Assembly: GCA_035315065.1 (NCBI GenBank)
Contig: DATFYM010000002.1
Location: 5,949 to 69,948 of the forward strand
From: Terriglobia bacterium
GTDB taxonomy: Bacteria > Acidobacteriota > Terriglobia > UBA7540
Length of the DNA stretch: 64,000 nucleotides
Direction of reading: 5' to 3'
The notes beneath the pieces were generated by a model. That model was not told the origin of the DNA. It did no database searches and worked only from the letters and a program-made list of their open reading frames with translations. Of this stretch, positions 1,875-44,592 are shown piece after piece. The first letter of the stretch is position 1. The number at the start of each line of letters is the position of its first letter. The position numbers were made by a program, and so were the translations under genes.

Positions 1875-4277
1875 ATGGCCGCGCAAGAAGCAGCACACGA
1901 CCTGTCGGTGGGCGGCCGGCGGGCTTCGAGGCCGCCTCGGGTGGCTCTCGCCCTCATCGGTTTCACGGCCATCATTGCGCAGATCGTGTTGATGCGAGAG
2001 CTGATCGTTGTCTTCTATGGCAACGAAATATCACTGGGCTTCATTCTAGCCAACTGGTTGCTCTGGACTGCCTTTGGCAGCGGCGCCTTGGGCCGCCTTG
2101 CCGGCAAAGTCCGCAACCCTCGCACGCTCATGGCCGGCTTGCAGGGTCTCATCGGGGTGGTACTTCCTGTCACCATTCTCGTCGTAAGAGCCAGCAAAAA
2201 CGCCTTTCAACCTACATCAGGCGAGATCCTTGGACCGGGCCCCATGTTTCTGACGTCCTTGGCGGTCCTCAGCGTGTTCTGCTCGGTCTCCGGGTTGCTT
2301 TTCGCCGCCGGCAGCCGCGCCTATGCTCGCGAGGCAGGGGCGTCGAGCATTGAGGCAACCAGTTCCGTGTACCTGCTGGAGGCGATAGGCTCCGGTGTGG
2401 GTGGCCTTCTGGCGAGCCTGGTTCTGATCCGCTACTTCGATGCTTTCGAAATAGCGTCGTTGGTCAGCATCCTGAACTTCGTGGCCGCGATTCTGATCGT
2501 CGAGGCGCCGCGGCTCCGACGCGCCCTCGTCGGAGGGCTTCTCGCAGTCTTCGCCTTTCTCGTTCTCCCCTTCCTCAACCGCCGACTCGAGAAGATGTCA
2601 CTGGCCTGGCTCTGGCGTGGCTTCCAGGTGGTGGCGATCCGCAACTCCATCTATGGCAATCTGGCCGTGGTTAAGACAGAAGGCACTCGCAGTCTCTTCG
2701 AAAATGGTCTGGTAGTCTTCAGCGTACCGAACCTCGAGTCGGCGGAGGAAGCTGTCCATTTCGCCCTGCTGCAACATCCCGCGCCGCGAAGCCTGCTGCT
2801 GATCGGCGGCGGCGTGAACGGAAGCCTCGCCCAGGCTCTCCAGCACTCGACCATCGAGCGCGTCGACTACGTTGAGCTTGATCCGGCGGTTCTGGATTTG
2901 GCCCGGCGCTACTTTCCGCAAGAATGGAGTCCGATCGGTTCCGATCCACGAGTGCACGCGCACCCCATCGACGGGCGCTTGTTTCTGAAGACGACGCGAG
3001 ACAGGTTCGACGTCATCATCCTCAACCTTCCCGATCCGGAGACTGCGCAGCTCAACCGATTCTATACCGACGAGTTCTTCCGGGAAGTGGCGGCCAAGCT
3101 GACCCCATCCGGAATCTTTTCGTTCCAGCTCCGAGCGGCGGAAGACTTTATCAGCCCCGAACTGGCGGACTTCCTGCGTTGCATCAAGAAGACGCTGAGC
3201 GAGGTCTTTCCGGAAGTGACCTTTATTCCCGGGGGTACCGTCCATTTCTTTGCCGCCCAGCGCCCCGCACTCCTCGCCACTGGTTCCCAGGACCTTTTGT
3301 CACGACTGCAAGCGCGGCATCTCCGCACCCGCTATGTTCGCGAGTATTACATTCCCTTCCGCATGATGCCGGACCGCATGGCCGATCTCGACCTGCAGAT
3401 CCGGCCACTCGCGGATACGCCCGTCAACCGCGATTTCACACCGGTAGCCTACTATTTCGATGTCGCCCTTTGGAGCCAGCGGTTCAATCACAGCTACCGT
3501 CAGGTGTTCCATTCCGCGGCGAGCGTGCGCTTCCGTTCCGTGATTGTCGCCGTGGGGTTGCTCCTGCTCGCGATCGCCGGAAGCCTTCGCTGGTTGGCGA
3601 AGAACGGTCAGCGATCCCGATCCAGTGCCGGCTTCTGCGTCGCCACCACCGGATTCACACTCATGGGCCTGGAGATGCTTTTGTTGCTGGGTTTCCAGGC
3701 CATCTACGGCTACGTTTACCACCAACTGGCCATCCTGATCGCTGCCTTCATGGTGGGAATGGCGGTGGGCAGTTGGTGGGCTAGGGGGGGGTCCAGTGGT
3801 GCCCCGAAGAGCGGCGCTAAGGGGCCGGACCCCGCTGGACCGAAACCGGGCGGCGCGGCAGGAAAACGGCAGGCAGTGTTGATCCTTGCCTGGCTGCAGA
3901 TCCTCGTCGCCGTCTCTCCGCTCCTGCTGTACGCATTGTTGGCCTGGTTCGCCGGGATCAGGACCGCGCTGGGACTGTGGGTGGTAAGCCAGATCGTGTT
4001 TCCCACCCTGGCCATCCTCTGCGGACTCCTGGGAGGATACCAGTTCCCGGTTGCCAGCCGGATGTTTTTCGTCAGCTCGCGGCAGGAGTCTAGCGGTCTA
4101 GGCTCGCTATATGCTCTGGACCTCCTGGGAGCCTGCCTCGGCGCGGTGCTCCTGAGCGTGTATTGGGTTCCCGTCTTCGGCTTCCTGAAGACCGCGTTGC
4201 TTAGTGCGGTGGTGAACCTGGCACCTGCCGGCCTTGCATATCTCTCGATGGGGGAACCCCCGGTTGATCGGGCATGA
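1875..4277 (+). CDS. Fused multi-TM (MFS-like) / spermidine synthase-like protein
   Basis: Hydrophobic helix blocks at both ends flank a SpeE-type core (LLLIGGGVNGS, VDYVELDPAV, FDVIILNLPDP, FYTDEFF). Confidence 0.75.
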   Translation: MAAQEAAHDLSVGGRRASRPPRVALALIGFTAIIAQIVLMRELIVVFYGNEISLGFILANWLLWTAFGSGALGRLAGKVRNPRTLMAGLQGLIGVVLPVTILVVRASKNAFQPTSGEILGPGPMFLTSLAVLSVFCSVSGLLFAAGSRAYAREAGASSIEATSSVYLLEAIGSGVGGLLASLVLIRYFDAFEIASLVSILNFVAAILIVEAPRLRRALVGGLLAVFAFLVLPFLNRRLEKMSLAWLWRGFQVVAIRNSIYGNLAVVKTEGTRSLFENGLVVFSVPNLESAEEAVHFALLQHPAPRSLLLIGGGVNGSLAQALQHSTIERVDYVELDPAVLDLARRYFPQEWSPIGSDPRVHAHPIDGRLFLKTTRDRFDVIILNLPDPETAQLNRFYTDEFFREVAAKLTPSGIFSFQLRAAEDFISPELADFLRCIKKTLSEVFPEVTFIPGGTVHFFAAQRPALLATGSQDLLSRLQARHLRTRYVREYYIPFRMMPDRMADLDLQIRPLADTPVNRDFTPVAYYFDVALWSQRFNHSYRQVFHSAASVRFRSVIVAVGLLLLAIAGSLRWLAKNGQRSRSSAGFCVATTGFTLMGLEMLLLLGFQAIYGYVYHQLAILIAAFMVGMAVGSWWARGGSSGAPKSGAKGPDPAGPKPGGAAGKRQAVLILAWLQILVAVSPLLLYALLAWFAGIRTALGLWVVSQIVFPTLAILCGLLGGYQFPVASRMFFVSSRQESSGLGSLYALDLLGACLGAVLLSVYWVPVFGFLKTALLSAVVNLAPAGLAYLSMGEPPVDRA

Positions 4278-5826
4278 CGGCATCGGGAGCGTGAGGCTGG
4301 CCGAAAACCAGGGCGGAGAACTGGAAAACATCCGTATCCTCGTTCTGCCAGCAGCGCCGCGGCAGTCCCGCCTTGACGCACGTCTGGTCGAGGAAGGTCG
4401 TCCGATCCCAGTGCTCCTCACTGGCGACCTGAGGCAAAAGCACCCCTTGCGATTCGCCCTCCCGCACGAGTAATCCATCATGGCCGACCTGGATTTGCTT
4501 CCAGTCCGTCACCCGGCGCAGCGGTGACAGGACCGAGATCTCGTATTCCAGCTCACCCAGTTCGGCAGCGGAGACCGGCGAAAAGCGCGGGTCTCGAACT
4601 GCCGCAAATGCCGCCACGTCGCGCACCGTCATACAGAGAGGTTTGAGGGGTGTGATGTAGCCGATACACCCGCGCAGCTCTCCTTTCTTCTTTAGCGTCA
4701 CGAAGGCGCCGCGGTCCCGCGTCAGAGCTTCGAGCCCCCCGGGCGAGCACTCATAGAGCTTGCCCTCGCGTACGGCGCTTTCCACGGACTTTTTCGCGAT
4801 CGTCATCAGCGCCTGCTCTTCCTTCACGTCCAGCCTGAACTCAGCGCCTTTCGAACCGCGTGACGCCGCCTCCTTGACGAACGCCTCCGCTCCGTAGCCG
4901 ACCACCCGACTCTTGTCGGGGGTGACGTCTCCCGAGTTGGCGTATTTGAGGATGATGGCGCGATTGGCTCCCAGGCGCTCGGCCGCGATCATCGCTGCCA
5001 CGATACCCCCTCCGCCGCAAGCCTCCCACACCCGCTGCTCGAAGTTGCCCGACATGTTGAAGTAGTCCCACTCTTCGATCGCTTTCAGCGTCTTGTGGTC
5101 GATGGTCTCCGCCTCGTCGTAGGGATGGTAATGCGACATATCGGAGCTGGCCACGATGAGGGTGTTAAAGTCGCCATCGGCGGTCGTCCCCTCCTTCTCG
5201 ATGAGCTTGGCCAGGCTCACGCCCAGCGCCCGCGAGGTGCCGTAGTCTTGTTCGCCCATCACCACCGGCACCAGCTTGAATTCGCCCAGCACGCGTTGCA
5301 GGAAGGGCAGTTCGTCCTCCAACGCATGTTCCCACCGGCCTTGAACCTCTCCATGTCCCTGGCCGGAGAACTTGATGAGCGGACTCATAGCCACCAGCTT
5401 GGCGGCAAAAGCCTTGTCGACCAGGACCTGGCCCAGCGGCGTAGCGTAGGCGTCGCCGTCATAGACTGAATTGAAGGGGAAGGCCTCATAGTGGCTGGGC
5501 GCTATCACCACCACGCGAGTGAACTTCCGTCCCCGCAGCAGAGCGTAGGAGTACGCCGCCACCGGACCGGAAAAGGGATAACCCGCGTGCGGCGCAACCA
5601 GCGCCACCAGCGGCCCCTTGAGTGCCGGCGCCGTTGCCTGAGCCAGAAAGTCGTCCACCATTTTGCCCAGTTCCTTCGGGTCGGCGGGATAGAAGCTCCC
5701 GGCAACTCCGGGCTGTCTTACCTTTGGTTTGTCAGCCGCTCTGGCATGGCCGCGCGGCAGCGAACAAGCCAACAACAGAAATAGGGAAGGAAAGTAGCGC
5801 CAATCTAGTTTCTTGGTCACGCTCAT
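4201..5826 (-). CDS. AmmeMemoRadiSam system protein B (Memo-like) fused to protein A (AMMECR1), with N-terminal signal-like leader
   Basis: Leader MSVTKKLDWRYFPSLFLLLACSLPRGHARA. Memo blocks PHAGYPFSGPVAAYSY, IAPSHY, SSDMSHY. AMMECR1 blocks GAFVTLKKKGELRGCIGYI, LLPQVA. Confidence 0.85.
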   Translation of the reverse strand: MSVTKKLDWRYFPSLFLLLACSLPRGHARAADKPKVRQPGVAGSFYPADPKELGKMVDDFLAQATAPALKGPLVALVAPHAGYPFSGPVAAYSYALLRGRKFTRVVVIAPSHYEAFPFNSVYDGDAYATPLGQVLVDKAFAAKLVAMSPLIKFSGQGHGEVQGRWEHALEDELPFLQRVLGEFKLVPVVMGEQDYGTSRALGVSLAKLIEKEGTTADGDFNTLIVASSDMSHYHPYDEAETIDHKTLKAIEEWDYFNMSGNFEQRVWEACGGGGIVAAMIAAERLGANRAIILKYANSGDVTPDKSRVVGYGAEAFVKEAASRGSKGAEFRLDVKEEQALMTIAKKSVESAVREGKLYECSPGGLEALTRDRGAFVTLKKKGELRGCIGYITPLKPLCMTVRDVAAFAAVRDPRFSPVSAAELGELEYEISVLSPLRRVTDWKQIQVGHDGLLVREGESQGVLLPQVASEEHWDRTTFLDQTCVKAGLPRRCWQNEDTDVFQFSALVFGQPHAPDAVMPDQPGVPPSRDMQGRQVPGSPPH

Positions 5827-6148: not shown

Positions 6149-7414
6149 TCACGACCACAAGCCCGGAATCACCTGCTGGCAGTACTCGCACTTGCCTTTT
6201 CTCACGTGCATCTGGCCTACGGTGAACCCCTGGCGCTCCACCACGATACGGCGGCACTTGGGGCAGTAAGTGTTTTCCGCGGGGTGGCCGGGCACGTTAC
6301 CGATGTAAACGTAGTGGAGACCCTCGGCATCGGCGATGGCCTTGGCCCGTTCCAAGGTCTCCACCGGCGTCTCGGGAAGGTTGGTCAACAGATACTCGGG
6401 ATGGAAACGCGTGAAGTGCACGGGGACGTCAGGGCCCAAGTCGGACTTCACCCACCGTGCCATGGCCTTGAATTCCGCGTCTCCGTCGTTCAAGGTCGGG
6501 ATCACCAGGTACACGATCTCGGTCCACGTTCCCTGTTTCTTGATCGTCACCAGGGTGTCGAGCACGGGCTTCAACTCGCCGTTCACGACTTCTTTGTAGA
6601 ACTTCTCTGAAAATCCCTTCAGGTCTATCTTGATGGCGTCTACGGTCCGGCACCAGGTTTTCAGGGGATCTTGTTGGATGTACCCTCCGCTGATCACCAC
6701 GCTTTTGACGCCGACATTGTGTCCGGCCTCCGCCGCGTCCATCACATACTCGTAGAAGATCACGGGCTCGCTATAAGTGTAGGCGATCGACGGGCACTGG
6801 TACTGTTTCGCCAGCGACGCGAGATCGCGGGGCGGTACGTAGTTGCTCTTGACCTGCTCCGGCCGCACCTGGGAGATCTCCCAGTTCTGGCACATCTTGC
6901 AGTTGACGTTGCAGCCCGCCGTGGCGATGGAGAAGGCCATGGTACCGGGCTGGAAATGGAACAAGGGCTTCTTTTCAATGGGATCGACGTGCGCGGTCAC
7001 CACCCGTGAATGGACCAGGCTGTAGTATTTGCCCCCGCGGTTCTCCCGCGCGCCGCAGTAGCCCCGCTCGCGATCGTCGATCACGCACTCGCGCGGGCAA
7101 AGCTTGCACTTGGTCTTCTTGTACGCGAGCTTCTCGTAGAACTTCGCTTCGACGATGAATTGCGAATCGTCAGCCGCCGCCGTGCCCGTTGGGATGGGAC
7201 TTGTTGGGATGGGACTTGCCCCACCGCCGGAGGCAGGCCCGGAAAGAAGTCCTATCGGGATCGCGCTCGCCGACGCCAGCGCACAACCGGCCAGGCAGGG
7301 AAGCGCGGCGGCTTTCAGGAACGCCCTGCGATCAACCCCCGAGTTCTGATCCCAAGTCAGGAACCGGCGGTCGCCGATCTTCAACCCCTGCTTTTCGGTG
7401 GCTTCGTTCCTCAT
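6149..7414 (-). CDS. AmmeMemoRadiSam system radical SAM enzyme with twin-arginine/lipobox-type N-terminus
   Basis: CNVNCKMC (CxxxCxxC) cluster motif. N-terminus DRRAFLKAAALPCLAGCALASASA. Adjacent to the Memo/AMMECR1 gene. The ATG at 7414 lies inside a repeat element, and a TTG at 7384 is an alternative start. Confidence 0.85.
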   Translation of the reverse strand: MRNEATEKQGLKIGDRRFLTWDQNSGVDRRAFLKAAALPCLAGCALASASAIPIGLLSGPASGGGASPIPTSPIPTGTAAADDSQFIVEAKFYEKLAYKKTKCKLCPRECVIDDRERGYCGARENRGGKYYSLVHSRVVTAHVDPIEKKPLFHFQPGTMAFSIATAGCNVNCKMCQNWEISQVRPEQVKSNYVPPRDLASLAKQYQCPSIAYTYSEPVIFYEYVMDAAEAGHNVGVKSVVISGGYIQQDPLKTWCRTVDAIKIDLKGFSEKFYKEVVNGELKPVLDTLVTIKKQGTWTEIVYLVIPTLNDGDAEFKAMARWVKSDLGPDVPVHFTRFHPEYLLTNLPETPVETLERAKAIADAEGLHYVYIGNVPGHPAENTYCPKCRRIVVERQGFTVGQMHVRKGKCEYCQQVIPGLWS

Positions 7415-10680: not shown

Positions 10681-10760
10681 TTCAGACCTCCACCTTCTCA
10701 ATCAGATTAGGGTCATTCATCCCCAGCCGGTGCCGCGCATCGGCGGCGGTCGCGATGTAC
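10681..10760 (-). pseudogene. 3'-terminal remnant (~25 codons plus stop) of a DUF362-family gene
   Basis: Reverse strand reads YIATAADARHRLGMNDPNLIEKVEV*. The intact DUF362 gene at 16480 ends YIATAADARHRLGTNQPSQIEKVEV*. About 85% nt identity over ~80 nt, with no upstream ORF. Confidence 0.65.
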
Positions 10761-10964
10761 GATACTAAGACCCTTGTTTTTCATAAGCGTCGTGGCTTTC
10801 CGAGCCGCGCGGTTTCTGCCATCATAGCGTCTTCAATAGCACCGTGGCTCAAGTTGCCCCAAGAGGATTCTTCGCGTCACAATGCCAAAATCAATTCGTC
10901 AAGATCCCGGTGCGTCGCAGCCTGCTGCCCACTGCCGACTCCCGACCGGGCGACTGCCTTCCTC

Positions 10965-12737: not shown

Positions 12738-13051
12738 AAGATAACTACCCTATCGTAGCTCCGCATCCGGCCGGTAAACTCCAGTTGTTTAAGTTATTTA
12801 TCAATAACTCTCATGATACCCTTCAACTAAACCGTCTGCCCGTGTATCATTCTCTGGCACAAGCTGCCGGATTCTCTCTCTACGGAGGTTTTTCCTGCCC
12901 ATCACCATCACTGCCAACTCTCAGTTGTCGGCCATCACCTTCTAGTCTTCCCGTGCCGCGCTACTGTCGGCGGGCCCTTTGCGTACCTACCGACTGCCTT
13001 CTGCCGACTGCCGACTGCTTCTTGACGACCCTCAACTCCTCTTGTCAACGG

Positions 13052-14014
13052 TTATTGCGACTTCCCTTTCGCATGTCCTTCTTCACGATAACGGAGAGCT
13101 TCAGCCGCGTCGCTTAACGGGTAGCGCCTGTCGATGACGGGTACAACTTTTCCGGCTTCAAGAAGACTTTTCAGAAAAACCAAATCCTTCGTGTTTATCT
13201 TCGCAATAAAGAAACGCATCTTCTTGCTCCCAATCCGTGATAGGAATGGTCCCAGTAACATAGCTTGAAAAACTCGACCCAAACCACCTCCGACCATGAC
13301 AAAAATTCCGTCCTGACTCAGCGCACGCCGGTAATCGAAAATCGAATGATGGGCGTTCACACCGAGAATGAGATCGTAACGCTGGCCACTTTGCGTGAAA
13401 TCTTCTCGAGTGTAATCAATGACATGGTCTGCGCCAAGCGATCGCGCCGTGTCCACATTCCTCGTACTGCACACGGCAGTGACCTCAGCCCCGAACGATT
13501 TGGCAATCTGGACCGCAAACGTACCCACACCACCAGACGCGCCATCAACCAGAACCTTTTGGCCTCGCTGAATCCGTCCCTTGTCACGAAGACCCTGGAG
13601 GGCGGTGATTGCCGCCACGGGTACAGCTGCGGCATCCTCGAACGATAGGTTGGCCGGCTTCAGCGCCAGTTTATCTTCAACCGCACACACATACTCGGCA
13701 AACCCTCCCACACCTTTTCCCCCGAACACCTCGTCGCCGGGCTGAAACTGTTTTACGTGTCTGCCAACCGCTTCAACTCGCCCCGCGATATCACAGCCTA
13801 TGACCTTGTATTTTGGTTTGAGCAGCCCCCCGATCATCGGGAGGAAGAACAACGGTCCTCTCATGGAGAAACTGTCAAGCGGATTTACAGATGCCGCGTA
13901 GATTTTTATCAGGACCTCGTTGTCCGCGGGGGTAGGTACTGCAATCTCGCTTAGCTGCAACACATCCGGCGGTCCGTATTGCGTGTGTACGATCGCTTTC
14001 ATAAAGTGCTTCAA
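13052..14014 (-). CDS. NAD(P)-dependent zinc-type alcohol dehydrogenase/quinone oxidoreductase family (MDR)
   Basis: MKAIVHTQYGPPDVLQL start region and nucleotide-binding block VDGASGGVGTFAVQIAKSFGAEV. The ATG at 14002 is an alternative start. Confidence 0.85.
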   Translation of the reverse strand: MKHFMKAIVHTQYGPPDVLQLSEIAVPTPADNEVLIKIYAASVNPLDSFSMRGPLFFLPMIGGLLKPKYKVIGCDIAGRVEAVGRHVKQFQPGDEVFGGKGVGGFAEYVCAVEDKLALKPANLSFEDAAAVPVAAITALQGLRDKGRIQRGQKVLVDGASGGVGTFAVQIAKSFGAEVTAVCSTRNVDTARSLGADHVIDYTREDFTQSGQRYDLILGVNAHHSIFDYRRALSQDGIFVMVGGGLGRVFQAMLLGPFLSRIGSKKMRFFIAKINTKDLVFLKSLLEAGKVVPVIDRRYPLSDAAEALRYREEGHAKGKSQ

Positions 14015-14127
14015 GAGTTCTCAGCTCTCGGCCGTCAGCCATCAGCTTCCCGCGCTGCCTTTTGACTTCCGGCGACTCCGTTCTGCCGACCATCGCCTGG
14101 AATGGCCCTCCGACCGTGATCCGTCCC

Positions 14128-14215
14128 CCAAATGGGTTCGTAATGGGTTCGGTCCCAAGTATCGCCTTTCGTTTTCAATAACTCAGTGGCTTCGGTCCTT
14201 CAAAATCGACTGATT
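14128..14215 (+). repeat. Element B partial copy
   Basis: CAAATGGGTTCGTAATGGGTTCGGTCCCAAG...TTTTCAATAACTCAGTGGCTTCGGTCCTTCAAAATCG. Confidence 0.75.
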
Positions 14216-14284
14216 CGCTTCCTTCTTGTCACAGCCTTGACACTGCCGAATGCCTTCTGCCTGCCGTCGGCTGCTTTCCGCGTT

Positions 14285-14400
14285 CTAACGGTGGCTTCGT
14301 TCCTGATTTCTCCAGAGCCCGATCCTTTGTTTTCTATCAAATCGGTGGCCTCTTTCTTCAAAAAGTTCCCGGCTTTCAGTTGTCAGCCATCGGTTTCCGA
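14285..14400 (+). repeat. Element A copy
   Basis: TAACGGTGGCTTCGTTCCTGATTTCTCCAGAGCCCGATCCTTTGTTTTCTATCAAATCGGTGGCCTCTTTCTTCAAAAAG. Just past the DUF4386 gene stop. Confidence 0.85.
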
Positions 14401-14409
14401 TGATTCCGT

Positions 14410-15093
14410 TCAAGGTTGCTTTGGTTCTGAAGCACTATTCATGCCTTTGACCAGAATCCACACCCCGATTGTAAATTCAAAGGGGACGTAGGGAAGGTAC
14501 AGGAAAAATGAAACTTGATGGCCAAACACAGCAAACAGTGTCCCTACCAGGCAAGGGAAAACTGCTATCAGACCCCAGAGAGACAGCGCACGGGGAACAA
14601 TTCTCGATTTGTCGAGCAGGTAATAAAAAAGGATCGCACCCAAACAAAAAGCCAACATACTCAGCGTAGCTCCAACAAAATCCATGGATTCCAACGCCAG
14701 GTTTCCTATCGTCTGCAAATAGGCAGGGTGTCCTGCGGTTACATATTCCTGACTTGTGCGAAGGAGAGAGAAAGAGGCTATTTTGCTGGTAGCAACCAGC
14801 GCCGCTTCTAAGACATAGAACCCCATGGCAACAAGAGCTACGGTTTCGTTCTGATTCCTCAGGGTTATAAAAAGAACGGCCCCTAAAAAGATGACGCCAA
14901 AGGCGGTGATCATATCAACCAAAATGTTTGCTCTCATCAGCCAGGCATTATTGGCAACCTTGATCATACTTTCACTTATATTTCCAGTCGGCGTCAATGC
15001 CAGTTTCAGAATCAGTCCACTGATCAAAGATGTAATCGCCTGAAGAAGAAATGCACCTCCCAAAACTCTTGAAGTACTGTTGACTGAATCCAT
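14410..15093 (-). CDS. DUF4386-like membrane protein
   Basis: About 6 TM helices. C-terminal pattern SRIVPRALSLWGLIAV..LPYVPFEFTIGVWILVKG resembles DUF4386 members (recalled, not searched). Confidence 0.6.
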   Translation of the reverse strand: MDSVNSTSRVLGGAFLLQAITSLISGLILKLALTPTGNISESMIKVANNAWLMRANILVDMITAFGVIFLGAVLFITLRNQNETVALVAMGFYVLEAALVATSKIASFSLLRTSQEYVTAGHPAYLQTIGNLALESMDFVGATLSMLAFCLGAILFYYLLDKSRIVPRALSLWGLIAVFPCLVGTLFAVFGHQVSFFLYLPYVPFEFTIGVWILVKGMNSASEPKQP

Positions 15094-15164
15094 TTCTTAT
15101 TCCCTGTTGTTTATTTCGATGACGCTGTCGATTGACTTCCGCCTACTGACGACTGCTTTCCGCC

Positions 15165-15250
15165 CTCTAAGGTGGCTTCGTTCCTGACTTTTCCAGAACC
15201 CGATCCTTTGTTTTCATGCAAATCGGTGGCTTCGTTTTTCAAATTGGGAA
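15165..15250 (+). repeat. Element A copy
   Basis: TAAGGTGGCTTCGTTCCTGACTTTTCCAGAACCCGATCCTTTGTTTTCATGCAAATCGGTGGCTTCGTTTTTCAAAT. Confidence 0.9.
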
Positions 15251-15935
15251 CTGATCCCGCTAGCGCCGGGTTGCGACCGCAAGTCCTGCGTTCTGCATCA
15301 CCGCCGCCACCAGGAAACCCCCGATTAGTATCCCGCCCGCGACCGCATACAGCCGGGTCGCTGGGGCCTGCGCCAGCCCCGCGCCGCCAATGCCGCCGGC
15401 GACGGTGAACTCGGCCCATTCACATGCCGCCCAAGCTGCCAACATGTCCCCGCCCAGCGGGAACATCGAGAACAGCCCAATGTTTCCAGCTACTGCGAAC
15501 ACAAGTCCAAACGCGGCGCCGAACCTGGCGCCCGCCGCCGCACCACGGATGCCCAGGTGCCGCTCCAACCACAGCAGCAACGCAGTCAACAGCAGAAAAG
15601 AACCGTAACCGAAAGGGATTCGCCGAAACATCAGCGCAGGCGGCAAGAACACCGGCCCGGGGTTGACGTAGTACCGCGACAGAAGACCGGCACTGAACAG
15701 GAAGTCTACACCGAGGAATGCGATCCACATCGCGCCGGCGATGGCGACCAGGCGTCCCATAGTCAGCCGCAGTTCATTGTCATGTGCTGTCGTCGGGACG
15801 TTCATGCACTTCCCTCTGGTTTAAGAAGCTCTCAGCTCTCAGCCATCAGCTATCAGCCATCAGCTTCCTGCCTTTTGCCTTTTGCCCTTTGCCTTTCTTT
15901 TCTCTTCCTGCCGACTACCTGCTGCCGACCGCTTT
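15240..15935. repeat. Segmental duplication, copy 2
   Basis: See copy 1. A direct repeat bracketing the oxidoreductase and DUF4386 genes. Confidence 0.9.
15260..15805 (-). CDS. Hypothetical polytopic membrane protein (181 aa), paralog 2
   Basis: Near-identical to 11060..11605, at an offset of exactly 4200 nt. Confidence 0.6.
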   Translation of the reverse strand: MNVPTTAHDNELRLTMGRLVAIAGAMWIAFLGVDFLFSAGLLSRYYVNPGPVFLPPALMFRRIPFGYGSFLLLTALLLWLERHLGIRGAAAGARFGAAFGLVFAVAGNIGLFSMFPLGGDMLAAWAACEWAEFTVAGGIGGAGLAQAPATRLYAVAGGILIGGFLVAAVMQNAGLAVATRR

Positions 15936-15939
15936 CCGC

Positions 15940-16045
15940 CCTGTAACGGTGGCTTCGTTCCTGACTTTTCCACAGCCCGATCCTTTGTTTTCATGCAAAT
16001 CGGTGGCTTCGTTTTTGGAAGCTCTCAGCTTTCAGCCATCAGTCT
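15940..16045 (+). repeat. Element A copy
   Basis: TAACGGTGGCTTCGTTCCTGACTTTTCCACAGCCCGATCCTTTGTTTTCATGCAAATCGGTGGCTTCGTTTTTGGAAGCTCTCAGCTTTCAGCC. Confidence 0.9.
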
Positions 16046-16264
16046 GCCCGCCACTTGCCGTCTGCCCATTGCCTTTTGCCTGTCTTGCTCCCTGCGACCC
16101 GCTTCTCCTGACTGACGAGAAAGAGAGGAAAGGGGGTGGCCATCTGCCCCAGGGCTTTCGCCCTGGGCTACATTATTTCGCCGCTCCGCGGCTTCCCCAC
16201 CTGCCTTCTGCCTCCTCTCGCCAGCGCGGCCTGTCGCCTGGACTGCCTGCCGGCTGCCACTGCC

Positions 16265-16385
16265 TCCTAACGGTGGCTTCGTTCCTGACTTTCCCACCGC
16301 CTGAGCCTTTGTTTTCTAGCAAATCGGTGGCTTCGTTTTTCAAAAAGCTTTTAGCTATCAGTCGTCAGCCATCAGCTTCCGGTCT
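16265..16385 (+). repeat. Element A copy
   Basis: TAACGGTGGCTTCGTTCCTGACTTTCCCACCGCCTGAGCCTTTGTTTTCTAGCAAATCGGTGGCTTCGTTTTTCAAAAAGC. About 100 nt past the DUF362 stop. Confidence 0.9.
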
Positions 16386-16444
16386 CACTGTGCCACTTGC
16401 GTTCCGGCTTGTCTGGGTCCGGAGCCCGACCGGAAACCGTCTTG

Positions 16445-16478
16445 CAATCGTCAACCGTAAATCGTAAATCGTCAATTC
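16445..16478. repeat. ATTGACG-word array (half palindrome) abutting the DUF362 stop
   Basis: CAATCGTCAACCGTAAATCGTAAATCGTCAATTC. The inverted partner lies at 17671 on the other side of the gene. Confidence 0.8.
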
Positions 16479-16479
16479 C

Positions 16480-17502
16480 TCACACCTCCACCTTCTCAAT
16501 CTGACTCGGCTGATTCGTCCCCAGCCGGTGCCGGGCATCGGCGGCCGTCGCGATGTACGTGGGCGCCCGTTTCTCGGCCTCCAGGGACTTCATGCCTTGC
16601 TCCGACCTTTTCTGTTCAATCAGCCGCCAACCGGTGTAGTCGAGAGCCACGGGGTCCTGGGCCACCAGCAATCCGTTAAAGGGCCAAGACCACTGAGGCA
16701 TGTAGGAAGGCCCGCCTTCGTATTGCGCGGTCGTGGCGTCACAGATGCTGAGCCGGATTTTCTGCCGAATCGGCGGCAGCATATTTACGTCGGCGATGTA
16801 GGGGTCGCCCACATCGAGGTGATACTTGTTGGGGTTGTGGATGGCGCCGAAGAGATTCTTGAGTGCCAGCGTTATGCCGGCGATTCCATGGTCCTTGAGC
16901 ACGGGCAGGTTGATGACCGCGTCGCAAGTACGAGTGAGGGTTCTCGACACCAAGCTGCCAACACTGCCGTAGATCGCGAGGTCCTGCTCGTAACCCGCGC
17001 TATCGTTGCCGATGTAGCGGATCCCTGACTGCTTCGATCCAGGCCGAAAGCCCGCGCTTTCCAGATCGCCGTCCAGCCGGTCCCACACCACGATGTCCTT
17101 GATGCCCGCCTGCTGGAGTCGCTCCGCGATCGCTTCCACCAGCATCACGTTGGTGGAGGCGGTGCCTCGTCCCGCCAGGCAGTTGACTTTCAGGCCTACC
17201 ACTTCGCCCGGCCGCACCAACTTCTTCCAAGCGGCTAAGGGAGAGTCGCAGTCATAGAAAGACTGCATGGCTCGATCCAGCAGTTTCAGGAGCCGTGCGG
17301 AGTCGACGCTCGCGCCTGACCCTCGCAGCGCCGCGTCCCGCGCCACCACGACTCTCGATTTAGTCTGTAGGGCGGCAGGTGCCGATCCCGCATGCGGGAC
17401 CGGCGCTACACCCAACGCGGCGCCAGCAATGCAGGTCCGCAGAAACTCGCGACGATTAGACCCACAAAAAATGGGCTTTAACTCCGAATTCTCCAGTGGC
17501 AT
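16480..17502 (-). CDS. DUF362 domain protein with twin-arginine leader
   Basis: MPLENSELKPIFCGSNRREFLRTCIAGAALGVA leader. Shares the block INLPVLKDHGIAGITLALKNLFG with the neighbouring paralog. Start trimmed to the ATG at 17502. Confidence 0.75.
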   Translation of the reverse strand: MPLENSELKPIFCGSNRREFLRTCIAGAALGVAPVPHAGSAPAALQTKSRVVVARDAALRGSGASVDSARLLKLLDRAMQSFYDCDSPLAAWKKLVRPGEVVGLKVNCLAGRGTASTNVMLVEAIAERLQQAGIKDIVVWDRLDGDLESAGFRPGSKQSGIRYIGNDSAGYEQDLAIYGSVGSLVSRTLTRTCDAVINLPVLKDHGIAGITLALKNLFGAIHNPNKYHLDVGDPYIADVNMLPPIRQKIRLSICDATTAQYEGGPSYMPQWSWPFNGLLVAQDPVALDYTGWRLIEQKRSEQGMKSLEAEKRAPTYIATAADARHRLGTNQPSQIEKVEV

Positions 17503-17670
17503 GGTTGCACCCGTCAGCCCAGATCGGTTAGCCAGGCACACGAATGCCCGACGCGATGCCCTAAAGTTAAACCCTTGACAAAAGTGCCGTCAGTATCACC
17601 GGTCACCCGTGCCTGTGACTAACGTCACTGCGGGTCAGGTCCTTAGTTGGATAAGTTCCAGATGGCCGTT

Positions 17671-17815
17671 AAGAATTGACGGTTGCAGATTGACGATTGG
17701 AAGAGGACCACCAATGACGATTGTCTGGGCCTATTGAAGGCCGCCGCGGCCTGCTTCTCTTTCTTTTTCAGTCGTCAATCGTAAATCTGTCCCGCCAGGC
17801 GGGATCAATTCTTCG
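17671..17815. repeat. Word-periodic palindrome, ATTGACG class
   Basis: AAGAATTGACGGTTGCAGATTGACGATTGG ... CAGTCGTCAATCGTAAATCTG ... GATCAATTCTT. Confidence 0.8.
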
Positions 17816-17905
17816 CCTTTGTCAGGAATTGGGTGTAACAGCACATTAGCCAGTCCGCACCCTGGGCCTTATATCCCGTTTACGGGGTTATTTCAGGGGC
17901 CATCT

Positions 17906-18907
17906 ATGGGCGCCAAAACCGATCTGCCGGGCCGTCGTCACGCTTTGCTTAAACTGGCGCGCTTGGGAGGATTGGGAGGGTTGGGAGCAGCTACCGCCGG
18001 TCTGGGTGTCTGGCTTAGCGCCCGCAGCAAGCAGCCCGAAGAGAACCCAGAGGAGAGCTTAGCTGCGAGCTTTGAACCCCGTCGAAACCTGCCGCCCGAT
18101 CCAAACCTGCCCGAGTTGGTGGTGGTGCAAGGCGAGGACCCGCGACTGCTGGTGCGCAGATCGCTCGAAGGACTGGGCGGCATAGGGCGGTTTGTCGTCC
18201 AGGGTGATGTGGTCCTGATCAAGCCGAACATCGCCTGGGACCGCACGCCGGAGCAGGCGGCCAACACCAATCCCCAGGTGGTGGCGGAGATGGTCCGACT
18301 CTGCCGGGAGGCCGGGGCGCGGAAGGTGATCGTCACTGACGTGAGTTGCAACGACCCCCGGCGCTGTTTCCGGCGCAGTGGCATCGCTGAGGCCGCGAGC
18401 GCCGAGGGCGCGGAAGTGGTCCTGCCCGAGGATCGGCACTTCAAGAGGGTCAACCTGCCAGGAAACCTCGGTTCGTGGCCCGTGCTGGAGCCCCTTCTCA
18501 CCGCCGATAAGGTGATCAACATCCCTGTCGCTAAACATCACAGCCTGACAGGCGTGACCCTGGGCATGAAGAACTGGATCGGCATCGTGGGCGGGCCTCG
18601 GGTTTGGCTGCACCAGGATATTCACACCAGTGTAGTCGACCTGGCCGAATTCGCGCGGCCGACGGTCACCATCATCGATGCCTATCGCGTCCTCGTGCGC
18701 AACGGCCCCACCGGCGGAAGCCTTTCCGACGTCGAGGTAAGGAAGACGTTGATTGCCGGCACCGACCCAGTAGCGCTGGACGCCTATGCCGCCAAGACCT
18801 ATTGGAACCTGGACCCGCGATCGCTGAGGTATCTGAAGATCGCCAGCGATCGTGGTCTGGGAAACATGAACTTCGAGCAAGTGAGGTCGCAAAAGGTGAC
18901 GCTGTGA
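17906..18907 (+). CDS. DUF362 domain protein with twin-arginine leader (paralog)
   Basis: MGAKTDLPGRRHALLKLARLGGLGG leader. Blocks VVLIKPNIAWD and INIPVAKHHSLTGVTLGMKNWIG. Start trimmed to the ATG at 17906. Confidence 0.75.
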   Translation: MGAKTDLPGRRHALLKLARLGGLGGLGAATAGLGVWLSARSKQPEENPEESLAASFEPRRNLPPDPNLPELVVVQGEDPRLLVRRSLEGLGGIGRFVVQGDVVLIKPNIAWDRTPEQAANTNPQVVAEMVRLCREAGARKVIVTDVSCNDPRRCFRRSGIAEAASAEGAEVVLPEDRHFKRVNLPGNLGSWPVLEPLLTADKVINIPVAKHHSLTGVTLGMKNWIGIVGGPRVWLHQDIHTSVVDLAEFARPTVTIIDAYRVLVRNGPTGGSLSDVEVRKTLIAGTDPVALDAYAAKTYWNLDPRSLRYLKIASDRGLGNMNFEQVRSQKVTL

Positions 18908-18960
18908 AGGAAGGGCCGCTTTTATGCGGAGCGACATAATTCGCTGCGGGAAAACTCCAT

Positions 18961-19147
18961 GGCTGTCATGCTGAACGCAGATTCCATGAGCCTTTGGCTC
19001 GCCACTGTGCATGAAAATGGCCTCGTTGGAGCAAGTCTTTTTTTTTCAGTACCGCCTTTGGCTATTTTCATGGCAGCGAAGCATCTCTCTTCTTGCCGGC
19101 TGAGGCAGCACAAGAGAGATTCTTCGCTACGCTTAGAATGACATGCC
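18961..19147. repeat. Degenerate palindrome of the GTCATTCTGAGCGAAGCGAAGAATC type
   Basis: GGCTGTCATGCTGAACGCAGATTCC ... GAGATTCTTCGCTACGCTTAGAATGACATGCC. Confidence 0.65.
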
Positions 19148-19202
19148 GACGCTTATCGCGAATGCATGTTGTTTTGTCGAAGTCGTCAATCAGCCGTCGT
19201 GA

Positions 19203-20933
19203 ATGGTAATGAGCCAATCGGACCTTCCCAAGCTGCGGCGCGCCTCACAGATTCTCTTCTTCGCTCTATTCCTGCTCCATCTGTTCGAGACCGAGTTCCG
19301 CGGCTCGCTCAAGGGCGTAACCGGCGACATCCGGTTGCCGATCCCTTACCCCGCCATCTTCCTCCTGTCGGACCCACTGGTCGCTATCTGCAACGCTCTC
19401 GCTTCCCGCGCCTTGTACCGGGGACTTCTTTGGAGTTTGACCATTTTGCTTCCCACTTTCTTCCTGGGACGATTCTTCTGCGGCTGGATTTGCCCGCTTG
19501 GCACACTGCATCACTTTTTCAGCCATCTCAAATCGGAGACAAAGCGTGGCCAGCGGCTGATCGAATCAAACCGCTATAAGAAGTGGCAGGCCACCAAGTA
19601 CTACATCCTCGCCGTGCTTCTGGTGTCGAGCCTCTTCGGGGTGATGATGCCAGCCCTGATGGACCCCATTTCCTTCCTGATTCGGTCACTGACGGTGTCC
19701 GTCCTGCCCGGACTGAATCTGGCCTTTAACGCCGTGCTGGATTCTCTCTATCAGACCAACAGCGGCGTGCTGGGGTTCATCGCCCATGCCTTGCAGTTTT
19801 TGCTGAACGCGACCCTGCTCAGCTTCAAGCAGCCGCATTTCAGGCAGGGATTCTTCCTGGGATTAATTCTGATCACGCTGCTCGCTCTGAATCTGCGCGT
19901 AACTCGCTTCTGGTGCCGCGCCCTGTGCCCGTTGGGGGCCCTGCTGGGTCTGGTGTCACGGTGGTCGATTCTGGGGATGGAGAAATGTGCGAGCGATTGT
20001 GACGATTGCCAGCGCTGCCTGTTGCATTGCCAGGGTGGCGATGACCCCATGCCAGGCGTGCCGTGGCGCAAGGCGGAATGTCACCTCTGTTTCAACTGCG
20101 TCGGCGACTGCCCGAAGAGCGGCGTCAAATTCAAGTTCTTCCCGGAGCTTGGTAGGGGCGAGCGGCGCTCGATCAATCCCAACGCTGACGCGGGGCCGAA
20201 CGCCGTTCGGCCGTACCAGACCACACTGATCGGTCCTCAGTTGCATCGGCGTAAGCTCCTCGCTTCGGTGGCGGCGGGCGCGGCCTTGCTCCCGATGTTT
20301 CGGAGCACCACCGCCTTCGGCGTTGAGCGCAGCCCTAGCCTCATCCGTCCGCCGGGGTCGCTGGACGAATCAGACTTTCTCGCTCGTTGCATCCGCTGCG
20401 GCGAGTGCATGAAGGTCTGCCCTAACAACGCCCTGCATCCGACGTTGACTGAAGCTGGATTCGAGGGCATTTGGAGTCCGGTGCTGGTGCCGCGCGTCGG
20501 CTACTGCGAGCCGAGTTGCACGCTGTGCGGCCAAGTGTGCCCCACCGGCGCCATCTGGGAGATCACGCAGGCAGAAAAGGCGTGGCTTCCAGCGGCCAGC
20601 CGACCAGACGCCAAGCCTGCTAAGCCTATTCGGCTCGGAACCGCATTCTACGATCAGGGCCGCTGCCTGCCGTGGTCGATGGCCACCGAGTGCATCGTCT
20701 GCGAAGAGTGGTGCCCTACCTCTCCCAAAGCGATTTATCTGGTTGCGGCGGTGGTGGTCGACGCTCAGGGCAAGGTGAAGCAGGTCCGCCAACCCCATGT
20801 CGATCCCAACCGCTGCGTAGGATGCGGTGCCTGCGAGTTCGCGTGTCCGGTGAAGGATCGTGCTGCCGTATACGTCACGAGCATTGGTGAGAGCCGCTCG
20901 CGGACACACCAGATCCTGCTTCAGAAGGTGTGA
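19203..20933 (+). CDS. Membrane-bound polyferredoxin, NapH/MauN-like N-half fused to NapG/MauM-like 4x[4Fe-4S] C-half
   Basis: FFCGWICPLG and FWCRALCPLG membrane motifs. Cys clusters CDDCQRCLLHC and CHLCFNCVGDCP. Internal RRKLLASVAAGAALL segment. CIRCGECMKVCP, CTLCGQVCPTG, CIVCEEWCPTS, CVGCGACEFACP. Confidence 0.8.
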   Translation: MVMSQSDLPKLRRASQILFFALFLLHLFETEFRGSLKGVTGDIRLPIPYPAIFLLSDPLVAICNALASRALYRGLLWSLTILLPTFFLGRFFCGWICPLGTLHHFFSHLKSETKRGQRLIESNRYKKWQATKYYILAVLLVSSLFGVMMPALMDPISFLIRSLTVSVLPGLNLAFNAVLDSLYQTNSGVLGFIAHALQFLLNATLLSFKQPHFRQGFFLGLILITLLALNLRVTRFWCRALCPLGALLGLVSRWSILGMEKCASDCDDCQRCLLHCQGGDDPMPGVPWRKAECHLCFNCVGDCPKSGVKFKFFPELGRGERRSINPNADAGPNAVRPYQTTLIGPQLHRRKLLASVAAGAALLPMFRSTTAFGVERSPSLIRPPGSLDESDFLARCIRCGECMKVCPNNALHPTLTEAGFEGIWSPVLVPRVGYCEPSCTLCGQVCPTGAIWEITQAEKAWLPAASRPDAKPAKPIRLGTAFYDQGRCLPWSMATECIVCEEWCPTSPKAIYLVAAVVVDAQGKVKQVRQPHVDPNRCVGCGACEFACPVKDRAAVYVTSIGESRSRTHQILLQKV

Positions 20934-20939
20934 AGACTA

Positions 20940-21044
20940 AACACAGAGGCACCGAGACACAGAGAAGAGAAAGAGAATCACATGGACATGTCGCTTGGTT
21001 TCCGACGTTCCCCATTTTTCTCTGTGCCTCCGTGTCTCTGTGTT
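20940..21044. repeat. Word-periodic palindrome, CACAGAG class
   Basis: AACACAGAGGCACCGAGACACAGAGAAGAGAAA / TTTTTCTCTGTGCCTCCGTGTCTCTGTGTT. The right arm lies inside the tracked lipoprotein ORF. Confidence 0.85.
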
Positions 21045-21530
21045 GGAAGCTCCCTCGCAATCCTTACGCTGAGTCTTTCCCTGGCGTGTGGCTCGAAATC
21101 CAGCTCCAAGCCCGCAACGTATTTCCCCGAGTCCAATGAGGCGCCTGGCTGGAGCAAGTCCGGCGAGACCCGAACCTTTCCTGCCGACCGGCTCTGGGAA
21201 TACATCGACGGCGACGCCGACAAGTACGTTCAGGCCGGCGTGCAGCAGACTCTGACCACCGACTACCGCTACGGCGACAAGATCGAAGCAGTGGCGGACG
21301 TGTATGTGATGGCCACGGCCGACGGAGCCGAAAAGGCCTTTGAATCGCAGGCGACGACGGGGAGCCAATCCGTGCCGCTGGGCGATGCGGCGCGGCTTTA
21401 CAAAGGAAGCCTGACGCTACGCAAGAATCGCTATTTTGTGCGTCTGGTGGCTTACGAAGATTTGCCGGAAGCACCACAGGCGCTGGTCGCCTTGGGGCGC
21501 GCCATCGCGGGCAAGCTAGACCAAAAATGA
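20982..21530 (+). CDS. Hypothetical lipoprotein (possibly DUF6599-like)
   Basis: Leader ending LSLSLACGS (lipobox). Start uncertain because codons 11-21 are the right arm of a palindrome. Family call is from memory only. Confidence 0.55.
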   Translation: MDMSLGFRRSPFFSVPPCLCVGSSLAILTLSLSLACGSKSSSKPATYFPESNEAPGWSKSGETRTFPADRLWEYIDGDADKYVQAGVQQTLTTDYRYGDKIEAVADVYVMATADGAEKAFESQATTGSQSVPLGDAARLYKGSLTLRKNRYFVRLVAYEDLPEAPQALVALGRAIAGKLDQK

Positions 21531-21654
21531 GCCCTCACAGCTCCCAGACCTTACGTTGTTCACATAAGAGGTTTGAGGAGATTGTTCACGAGACTTGTTC
21601 CCGAGAGACCCCCTCAGCCGGCCCGCCCCGGCTGGAGAAAGCGCCGGTTGCGGT

Positions 21655-21732
21655 CCACCCTCTCCCCCAAAGGGGGCAAGGGTAGTAAATCCAGATTATT
21701 GCTCCCCTCGCCCCCTTGGGGGAGAGGGTCGG
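21655..21732. repeat. Palindrome CCACCCTCTCCCCCAAAGGGGG / CCCCCTTGGGGGAGAGGGTCGG
   Basis: Read directly in the 420-nt gap upstream of coaD. Confidence 0.8.
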
Positions 21733-22023
21733 GGATGGGACGAGGCTGACTTAGATGAGGGTTCGCTCCTAACGGAGCTCGCCCTCCATGAGCTATAAGG
21801 GGGTCGAATTGGACACAGTCAGCATAAGCGAACAGTGTTGCTCCTACGCCCCAGACTTAGACTAGTCCGCCGCTGCATCCGCGATCAATCACCCTAAACG
21901 AACCGGGCAACTGCCTTCGAGCCGAACCCAATCCAACCCCCCAACCCCTTCTTGGGTTTACAACTCCTCAAGGGAAAAGCTAGAATGACGGATTCGGAGT
22001 CGGCTTTCGACGGCAACGGACCT

Positions 22024-44590: not shown

Positions 44591-44592
44591 TA

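Follow-up and report, generated by a model that had tools for sequence, protein, structure and literature searches.

A gene cluster of a Terriglobia bacterium (Acidobacteriota; assembly GCA_035315065.1, contig DATFYM010000002.1) is best read as an outward-facing electron-transfer module, since its gene set, twin-arginine leaders, internal twin-arginine pair and lipobox are conserved among relatives and its architecture matches that of a described class. The cluster lies at positions 16480-21530 of the window, i.e., the whole 64,000-nt stretch of DNA analysed here, and comprises the following open reading frames (ORFs): (i) DUF362-A and DUF362-B, two divergently oriented paralogs with twin-arginine translocation (Tat) leaders; (ii) a polytopic polyferredoxin (PFD) in which a NapH-type and a NapG-type half are fused; and (iii) a lipoprotein of the DUF6599 family. 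In a preliminary description of this DNA, these four ORFs had been put forward as a periplasmic redox module, and all of them, together with every motif quoted for them, are indeed present.

In our view, it is fairly probable that PFD and DUF6599 constitute a membrane-anchored, outward-facing electron hub for a changeable set of Tat-exported client enzymes. The conserved gene set probably brings redox chemistry to the outer side of the membrane and, perhaps, even radical-SAM (S-adenosylmethionine) chemistry.

The polyferredoxin and its lipoprotein partner

PFD (ORF C; 19203..20933, + strand; 576 aa) shows two Pfam Fer4_5 (NapH-type) matches (69 bits, cutoff 22) and several 4Fe-4S dicluster matches. 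Among the NCBIfam models, its residues 11-191 align to NapH (E 3.5e-24) and its residues 347-559 to NapG (E 5.5e-26), in agreement with the fused polyferredoxin proposed earlier. According to PMC5449189, NapGH, the quinol dehydrogenase that serves periplasmic nitrate reductase, pairs a membrane protein, NapH, which has two CxxxCP motifs and Fe-S clusters on the cytoplasmic side, with a Tat-exported four-cluster protein, NapG; together they deliver electrons to the periplasmic enzyme system.

Four transmembrane (TM) helices are predicted from hydropathy in PFD, at about residues 14-32, 70-93, 133-153 and 216-234. A CxxxCP motif stands immediately past TM2 (C93/C97) and another past TM4 (C238/C242), both of them invariant in 81/81 sequences of an alignment that contains the window protein and its relatives from 80 genomes. 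Two more 4-Cys motifs are found on the predicted cytoplasmic side, and the NapH half holds a canonical CxxCxxCxxxCP motif at residue 293. The loops richest in Lys and Arg (8 and 14) face what is, in NapH, the cytoplasmic side, in keeping with a positive-inside pattern. Then comes a twin-arginine pair, RR349-350, followed by LLASVAAGAALLPMF and by an Arg (R367); this internal motif and the fifth TM segment (RRKLLASVAAGAALLPMF; 20247..20300, + strand) are predicted to be Tat-dependent. On the Hessa scale, the fifth segment (TMD5) sums to +5.9, versus -0.03 for TM3 and +1.3 for TM4.

The remainder of the protein is the NapG-like half (20301..20933, + strand), predicted to be periplasmic, with four 4-Cys motifs comprising 16 invariant Cys. 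Four CxxCxxCxxxCP motifs had been assigned to this half. Two of them have that strict spacing (at 396 and 538) but the other two are variants (CxxxCxxCxxxCP at 435 and Cx8CxxCxxxCP at 488), the further canonical copy being the one at residue 293. In all 81 aligned sequences, the internal RR pair and 28 Cys (7 x 4; 12 before the RR and 16 after it) are invariant.

Tooke et al. (2017, eLife; PMC5449189) described the polytopic polyferredoxin Q1NSB0 of the delta proteobacterium MLMS-1 as a NapH-NapG fusion with five TM domains. According to that paper, Q1NSB0 has (i) three cytoplasmic and four extracytoplasmic [4Fe-4S] clusters; (ii) a conserved RR directly before TMD5; and (iii) a weakly hydrophobic TMD5 followed by positive charges, low hydrophobicity and C-terminal positive charge being the published criteria for a Tat-dependent TMD5 (PMC5449189). 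Furthermore, with reporters fused after TMD5 of Q1NSB0, export in Escherichia coli was RR- and Tat-dependent (PMC5449189). Tat-dependent export past TMD5 has thus been shown in the literature for one homologue, and for the PFD of the window it is predicted by analogy. Every sequence feature described for this class was found in PFD and is invariant in its relatives, the likeness being to the published description and not to an alignment with Q1NSB0. Judged from its sequence, PFD belongs to this already described dual Sec/Tat-inserted class, as a member and not as a new kind. The available text of Tooke et al. deals with membrane insertion and gives no physiological role or partners for the protein; the DUF6599 partner, its fusions and the Tat-exported clients are added here.

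PFD could also be an ordinary NapGH (or NosR/RdhC-type) accessory of a known respiratory enzyme, with DUF362 and DUF6599 as unrelated neighbours, an explanation that we regard as highly improbable. Its best NCBIfam alignments are certainly those to NapG and NapH, and the NapH and NapG halves are shared with the NapGH proteins of E. coli and Wolinella succinogenes. Nevertheless, the scores are far below the equivalog cutoffs, at 91 bits for NapG (cutoff 269) and 85 bits for NapH (cutoff 234); over the curated models NF007013, NF007012, TIGR02163 and TIGR00397, the scores and cutoffs are 85/234, 91/269, 77/213 and 58/179. Profile searches of the families named in the preliminary description thus placed DUF362 above its cutoff (see below), while NapH and NapG align to PFD but remain far from theirs. 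Besides, the two halves here form one polypeptide, the clients are DUF362, radical SAM and aldo/keto reductase (AKR)-Fe-S proteins, and there is an extra lipoprotein subunit. No Nap genes were seen among the scanned window ORFs, and neither napA/B/C nor nos nor rdh genes appear among those ORFs (a part of all the window ORFs having been profile-scanned) or among the recurrent neighbours. Finally, 65-70 of 80 genomes keep the neighbours even though gene order is shuffled and the flanks differ, and DUF6599 fusions occur. A classical Nap, Nos or Rdh accessory role was therefore rejected on scores and gene context, and PFD is, as far as its sequence indicates, NapGH-like and no Nap component.

The gene after PFD encodes the DUF6599 lipoprotein (ORF D; 20982..21530, + strand; 182 aa; Pfam PF20244, 62 bits, cutoff 27). 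A lipoprotein had been noticed at this place and it is now assigned to a family: the lipobox ...LSLSLAC36GS follows a hydrophobic stretch, and its Cys (Cys36, nt 21087-21089) is kept in at least 90% of 37 DUF6599 homologues. An identical database protein is annotated as "DUF6599 family protein" in a Terriglobia metagenome-assembled genome (MAG). The model of the protein (pLDDT 86.6) is an alpha/beta sandwich, and a PDB sequence search with the DUF6599 profile returned nothing meaningful. Since no conserved Cys or His was found in the mature part of the 37 homologues, DUF6599 is probably a docking or a substrate/ligand-binding subunit rather than a redox centre.

Conserved neighbours and the DUF362 proteins

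Gene neighbourhoods were compared after a locus scan with one genome per GTDB species, in which at least 544 loci with a PFD relative were confirmed by the peptides VCPTGAIW or EWCPTSPK. The neighbourhood set comprises the best 80 of these at least 544 loci (60-72% identity), with 10-kb flanks. Nearly all of the 80 are from Acidobacteriota, and a few are labelled Verrucomicrobiia, Binatia, Limnocylindrales or Ca. Zhuqueibacter; the counts given here refer to the closest species and say little on distant phyla. Moreover, most of these loci lie on MAG contigs, and a gene missing from the 10-kb flanks may still be present elsewhere in the genome. Neighbour genes were searched with profiles for DUF362-A, DUF362-B and DUF6599, built from the window proteins and run against all stop-to-stop ORFs, because longest-ORF calling and single-linkage clustering gave shadow ORFs in GC-rich DNA. 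Tat leaders were called with a rule written for this analysis (an N-terminal S/T-R-R-x-F-L-K-like motif plus at least 13 uncharged residues), and the lipobox, the leaders and the topology were judged from motifs and hydropathy.

DUF6599 is the tightest partner of PFD: it is adjacent or fused to it in 70/80 loci, i.e., it adjoins PFD in 61 and is fused to the PFD C-terminus in 9. PFD-DUF6599 fusions are also present among database proteins (P0065, P0091, P0109 and P0112). A DUF362 gene lies within 10 kb of PFD in 65/80 loci and within 3 kb in 62/80; both types are found in 32 loci, the B-type only in 25 and the A-type only in 8. The adjacency that the preliminary description had set as a test is accordingly kept in relatives. 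At least three gene orders occur: (i) divergent A|B-PFD-DUF6599 (the window, L001 and L007); (ii) PFD-DUF6599-A-B (L024, L032, L044 and L084); and (iii) PFD-B-DUF6599 (L043, L052 and L073). The flanking genes are unrelated between loci and differ even in a relative with 89% identity. Because the association survives such shuffling and the genes fuse, the functional link is strongly evidenced. As a separate observation, a second, longer DUF6599-like subtype (ORFs of about 300-360 aa, 100-128 bits) follows DUF362-B, not PFD, in nine loci (L023, L030, L042, L043, L052, L064, L073, L083 and L085).

In the preliminary description, the system was quinol-linked and outward-facing, with the DUF362 proteins as its catalytic subunits. 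Its outward-facing character agrees with our preferred reading, but DUF6599 turns out to be the closest partner and DUF362, which is absent from the flanks in 15/80 loci, is no obligate one. In 17 loci, another Tat-leader protein is present: an AKR-like protein (about 405 aa) whose C-terminal part is a 4Fe-4S dicluster domain and whose gene is located after DUF6599 (L008, L009, L013-L018, L020, L021, L028, L029, L035, L036, L039, L049 and L069), in some cases with and in others without DUF362. The version of L023 has a clear aldo/keto-reductase domain. These proteins have an RR leader (e.g., IGRREFIVTSAGALAAGLG and GRREFIVTSAGALAAGLG) and look like an alternative client, exported through Tat, for the PFD-DUF6599 core. 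A constant core of PFD and DUF6599, accompanied by variable Tat-leader proteins, is what is expected of an electron hub with exchangeable periplasmic clients.

A gene for pyruvate:ferredoxin oxidoreductase (PFOR) and a DHODH-like gene are directly upstream of PFD in 8-9 DUF362-less loci (L004, L009, L010, L015, L018, L021, L028, L037 and L039). In the window, the PFOR (1193 aa) and DHODH-like genes are at 46355-51050 (+ strand), 25 kb from PFD. This pair may be a cytoplasmic low-potential electron source, or it may reflect mere clade-specific synteny.

Both DUF362 proteins of the window belong to Pfam PF04015 (cutoff 24). DUF362-A (353 aa; 16480..17541, - strand) scores 83 bits over profile positions 1-199/200 and has the Tat motif SNRREFLRT; DUF362-B (362 aa; 17819..18907, + strand) scores 185 bits over positions 1-200/200 and has the Tat-type leader MGAKTDLPGRRHALLKLARLGGLGGLGAATAGLGVWLSA. 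Their true starts are likely internal, at M14 (nt 17502) for DUF362-A and at M30 (nt 17906) for DUF362-B, the latter being also the start of the identical database protein P0121 ("DUF362 domain-containing protein", from a Terriglobia MAG). From these corrected starts, the RR is at leader position 17 in A (NRREFL plus 25 uncharged residues) and at position 10 in B (GRRHAL plus 20). The twin-arginine leaders that had been recognised earlier on the divergent pair are kept in its relatives as well, with an RR leader in 56/56 B-type and 40/41 A-type homologues (96/97 together). Neither DUF362 type carries an Fe-S motif; the Tat leader would be accounted for by some other cofactor taken up in the cytoplasm or by export of an already folded complex.

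With only 25% identity between them, A and B are regarded as old paralogs. The residues common to both types (in B numbering from M30) are K106, N108, D145, N205, P207, K210, H212, K222 and N223, and further G226, H235/236, D258, G267, P268, D287, P288, D292 and W300. A third, low-scoring DUF362 subtype was also seen in four loci (L019, L022, L030 and L042).

According to its predicted structure (41 sequences; pLDDT 83, pTM 0.80; leader of low confidence), DUF362-B has the fold of LarA, the lactate racemase. In a Foldseek search against the PDB, its top 19 matches were all from the LarA superfamily (E 1.6e-6 to 1.8e-4; query-normalised TM-score 0.38-0.47), including lactate racemase, malate racemase and LarA-like nickel-pincer enzymes. 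DUF362 and LarA (DUF2088) are members of the same Pfam clan (PMC11770544). At the sequence level, no significant match of DUF362 to LarA was obtained in PDB searches with DUF362-B and with the DUF362 profile, and Pfam returned only DUF362 at E <= 0.01.

A segment of DUF362-B, KHH212SLTGVTLGMK222NWIGIVGGPRVWLH236, can be placed against ESH174FFAGFSGGRK184SVLPGIASYKTIMANH200 of Lactobacillus plantarum LarA. The H212-x9-K222 spacing equals that of H174-x9-K184, and the next His is 14 residues on (H236) versus 16 (His200). In LarA, His174 is catalytic, Lys184 tethers the cofactor and His200 is a Ni ligand. The LarA segments used for hhalign came from a PDB query with a made-up consensus bait. That DUF362 may keep the cofactor-tethering Lys and the metal-binding His of LarA is, at this sequence level, a lead. 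Differences are also evident: (i) the catalytic His108 of LarA has no evident equivalent in DUF362; (ii) the mature domain of DUF362-B has about 280 aa versus about 420 aa in LarA; (iii) LarA enzymes are redox-neutral cytoplasmic racemases, while DUF362-B has a Tat leader and its gene adjoins that of an electron-transfer protein. Genes larB, larC and larE are not evident among the window ORFs, part of which were profile-scanned.

This fold also lends itself to a reversed electron flow, in which LarA-fold DUF362 proteins would be periplasmic dehydrogenases acting on hydroxy acids or sugars, and the NapG-like domain would collect their electrons for the quinone pool. The chemistry of the LarA superfamily is hydride abstraction from 2-hydroxy acids (PDB titles; PMC11770544); DUF362 domains are elsewhere fused to carbohydrate-binding modules and dockerins, suggestive of extracellular carbohydrate-related substrates (PMC5742341); and a GH3 glycosidase is encoded in the window at 47-1849. 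We nonetheless consider such a reversal, the main rival of our reading, unlikely. The other clients of the hub, i.e., the electron-consuming radical SAM enzyme and the AKR-like ferredoxin protein, fit electron supply better, and NapGH, the closest characterised relative, sends electrons outward. Furthermore, among the recurrent neighbours in the 80 loci, the cluster shows no conserved genes for substrate transport or catabolism.

The putatively exported AmmeMemoRadiSam genes and their interruption

The four-gene module delimited in the preliminary description is a conserved set, but half of the ancestral cluster lies outside it, at 1875-7414 of the window. This other half comprises: (i) an AmmeMemoRadiSam radical SAM enzyme (6149..7414, - strand; TIGR04337, 378.7 bits, cutoff 220) with the Tat leader VDRRAFLKAAALPCLAGCALASA; (ii) a Memo-AMMECR1 fusion, i.e., AmmeMemoRadiSam proteins B and A (4201..5826, - strand; TIGR04336, 248 bits, cutoff 26; TIGR04335, 178 bits, cutoff 99; also matched in Pfam), with an N-terminal hydrophobic signal peptide; and (iii) a fused membrane (MFS)/spermidine-synthase-like (SpdSyn-like) protein of about 800 aa (1875..4277, + strand; Pfam Spermine_synth; NCBIfam MFS_SpdSyn, 57 bits, cutoff 40). 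By hydropathy, the latter comprises a 320-aa soluble domain preceded by about 6 TM helices and followed by about 7 others (about 13 in total).

The TIGR04337 model begins at residue 91 of the radical SAM enzyme, and the roughly 90 extra N-terminal residues hold the Tat leader (DRRAFL plus 26 uncharged residues). Its homologues at related loci have DRRxFLK-type leaders, and all the Memo-AMMECR1 fusions at those loci have a hydrophobic N-terminal signal (Sec-type). The radical SAM enzyme has 1507 matches at E <= 1e-30 in a library of 1.84 billion cluster representatives. In the best 150 of these 1507, most proteins are of 330-350 aa without the extension, and 26 diverse ones (37-62% identity) have RRxFL plus at least 13 uncharged residues, so that the leader-bearing members are a broad minority of the family. 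As in the usual AmmeMemoRadiSam system (TIGR04335/04336/04337), the three families are above cutoff and linked, here at 4201-7414; the differences are the export signals, the presence of DUF362-A in the operon and, in many genomes, that of PFD and DUF6599. Taken at the level of sequence signals, the Tat leader on the radical SAM enzyme and the signal peptide on Memo-AMMECR1 would imply an exported radical SAM system.

In L001 (78%) and L007 (72%), which are the closest relatives, the genes are contiguous: SpdSyn-like (+) | Memo-AMMECR1 (-), radical SAM (-), DUF362-A (-) | DUF362-B (+), PFD (+), DUF6599 (+). Many other genomes have the order PFD-DUF6599-DUF362A-radicalSAM-Memo/AMMECR1 on one strand; in L041, for example, 4 nt separate the DUF362-A and radical SAM ORFs. 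The radical SAM, Memo-AMMECR1 and SpdSyn-like genes occur together in 22 loci; the SpdSyn-like gene is present in 25/80, between the Memo-AMMECR1 gene and DUF362-B. In all 24 loci with a strong radical SAM match, a same-strand A-type DUF362 directly adjoins the radical SAM gene. In the ancestral arrangement, the putatively exported AmmeMemoRadiSam operon began with DUF362-A.

Such a constant position could also mean that DUF362-A is an accessory protein, scaffold or cofactor carrier of the exported AmmeMemoRadiSam pathway, that PFD mainly reduces the radical SAM cluster, and that DUF362-B has a separate role. In line with it, every strong radical SAM match (24/24) is immediately preceded by a same-strand A-type gene, Fe-S motifs are absent from DUF362, and the two types, with their low mutual identity, occur independently (25 loci with B only and 8 with A only). 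On the other hand, 16/40 A-type loci show no strong radical SAM match in their flanks, including the compact PFD-DUF6599-A-B arrangement of L024, L032, L044 and L084, and the polar set K106, N108, D145, K210, H212, K222, N223, H235/236, D258, D287 and D292 suggests an active or a cofactor site rather than a scaffold. A purely auxiliary role of DUF362-A is hence, in our judgement, distinctly unlikely.

In the window, about 9 kb of inserted DNA (7415-16479), much of it repeat-rich, parts DUF362-A from the radical SAM gene, all the cluster genes being full-length. A decayed third DUF362 3' end had been reported at 10.7 kb. The fragment is real (nt 10685-10780, - strand, correspond to the final 27 positions of the A-type DUF362 profile; E 8e-9), but it is a copy of the 3' end of DUF362-A: 10682-10761 and 16480-16559 share 89% identity over 80 nt, as a direct repeat that brackets a 5.8-kb part of the insertion. 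An independent third DUF362 gene was thereby ruled out, and the duplicate (10682..10780, - strand) is a rearrangement scar at one edge of the 5.8-kb repeat-rich stretch. In the 89% relative (L087/L088), a different insertion, an uncharacterised 454-aa gene, is found at the same A|radical-SAM junction, which for this reason seems insertion-prone and looks like a hot spot. In the same relative, a 23S_rRNA_IVP-family (four-helix-bundle) gene and a 44-aa ORF lie between the divergent A and B genes (7903-8645).

The 5.8-kb stretch itself contains, at 10968-16394, a repeat of about 80-120 nt in five or six copies (e.g., 12267-12388, 14241-14362, 15122-15243, 15899-16020 and 16223-16344), as well as runs with a 14-nt spacing (AGCCATCAGC...TTTGCC...). 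They give rise to long spurious ORFs in which peptide strings such as SVASFLK recur, and the family could represent a miniature mobile or a REP-like element. A hydrophobic membrane ORF of 181 aa is present in two copies (11060-11605 and 15260-15805, - strand; third-position GC content, 0.74), whose segments 11035-11334 and 15235-15534 are 90% identical in nucleotides; it has no Pfam match, and no homologue was found in the 80 related loci. The interruption also holds a MacB-like permease (8178-10592, - strand), a zinc-type dehydrogenase and a DUF4386 protein. MacB/FtsX-type permeases with periplasmic core domains, which are common in Acidobacteria, are encoded in the window both there and at 41834-44731 (- strand). 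A single copy of the Acido-Lenti-1 RNA (Rfam RF01687; 55.8 bits, gathering threshold 37) was detected at 16148-16193 (+ strand), within the repeat-rich insertion and just downstream of the DUF362-A stop. No riboswitch was found near the cluster with Rfam, and a promoter/terminator scan of 16300-21800 gave nothing above shuffled expectation.

Proposed electron flow and its significance

Domain architecture, conserved motifs and gene association follow directly from the sequence comparison, and from them we infer a physical complex, an electron direction, a donor, a DUF362 cofactor and a substrate. The proposed mechanism would be as follows: (i) Sec would insert the NapH-like half, with 4 TM helices and three [4Fe-4S] clusters at the cytoplasmic face; (ii) the internal RR and the weak fifth helix would deliver the NapG-like half, folded and holding four clusters, to Tat and hence to the periplasm, where it would remain membrane-tethered; (iii) DUF6599, lipid-anchored on the same face, would dock to the NapG-like half; and (iv) electrons would enter from the cytoplasmic side or from the quinone pool and reach the outer face of the membrane. 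The clients would be here the two LarA-fold DUF362 proteins and, in the ancestral operon, also the Tat-leader radical SAM enzyme and the secreted Memo-AMMECR1. Electrons would flow outward, as in NapGH, and reduce the periplasmic clients, the substrate being presumably some extracytoplasmic or envelope molecule. The quinol link claimed for this system is an analogy to NapGH, and the donor could equally be a cytoplasmic low-potential carrier.

A comparable logic is found in the MsrPQ-type pairs, where a cofactor enzyme exported through Tat receives its electrons from a polytopic redox protein of the membrane. Nevertheless, the families are unrelated, and MsrPQ uses heme b and a molybdenum cofactor, as opposed to the Fe-S clusters predicted here. 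Tooke et al. give MsrPQ as a parallel case, with split versus fused architectures (PMC5449189).

Several points weigh against the hub. First, no Fe-S motif was found in DUF362-A and DUF362-B and no redox cofactor has been shown for them, which leaves their need for electrons unproven; at 15/80 loci, moreover, PFD-DUF6599 is still there with no DUF362 in flanks of up to 10 kb. Second, the H/K/H equivalence between DUF362 and LarA rests on hhalign comparisons of consistent register and non-significant E (0.6 and 0.12), and the fold matches of DUF6599 are weak (E >= 1.4e-3), pointing to the extracytoplasmic domains of TiME, the PknH sensor and TP0453. Third, because the NapH and NapG scores are so far below the equivalog cutoffs, quinol oxidation stands as an analogy only. 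Fourth, the 9-kb insertion disrupts the operon in the window, so co-expression is uncertain here. Finally, no functional study of DUF362 (PF04015, COG2006), DUF6599 or AmmeMemoRadiSam was found in the literature searched.

The most far-reaching reading, which we offer tentatively as a possible but doubtful extension of the hub, is a complete extracytoplasmic radical-SAM pathway. In such a pathway, the exported enzyme and Memo-AMMECR1 would act on an envelope or extracellular substrate, PFD would feed the SAM-cleaving electrons, DUF362 would carry an organometallic (nickel-pincer-like) or other cofactor assembled in the cytoplasm, and the SpdSyn-like protein would provide or use SAM, or a derivative of it, outside. 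A radical SAM enzyme in that location needs both SAM and a very low-potential donor there, a further difficulty, and we know of no precedent for it. If true, radical SAM chemistry would, to our knowledge for the first time, be found outside the cytoplasm, which would challenge the assumption that it is restricted to that compartment, and three orphan families (DUF362, DUF6599 and AmmeMemoRadiSam) would gain an initial clue to their function.

In the literature searched, neither the PFD-DUF6599 partnership and its fusions, nor a LarA-fold DUF362 client set, nor an exported AmmeMemoRadiSam operon was found, with a possible overlap in a 2019 article by Burroughs et al. That article, in the Journal of Biological Chemistry, reportedly extends the genome contexts of Memo-AMMECR1-radical SAM systems and may partly overlap with the present findings.

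In any case, the fused dual Sec/Tat PFD, so far described as a case of membrane insertion, gains a physiological context as the core of a widespread gene set, whose clients are all uncharacterised proteins with export signals. The diagnostic peptides place this core in at least 544 species-level genomes, mostly of soil and peat Acidobacteriota. Three hypotheses are opened: (i) DUF362 may be a LarA-fold, Tat-exported partner of PFD; (ii) DUF6599 may be a subunit of PFD; and (iii) an exported form of AmmeMemoRadiSam may rely on a dedicated electron supply. Since Acidobacteriota abound in soils and are still little understood, a conserved redox system of their envelope bears on their ecology.

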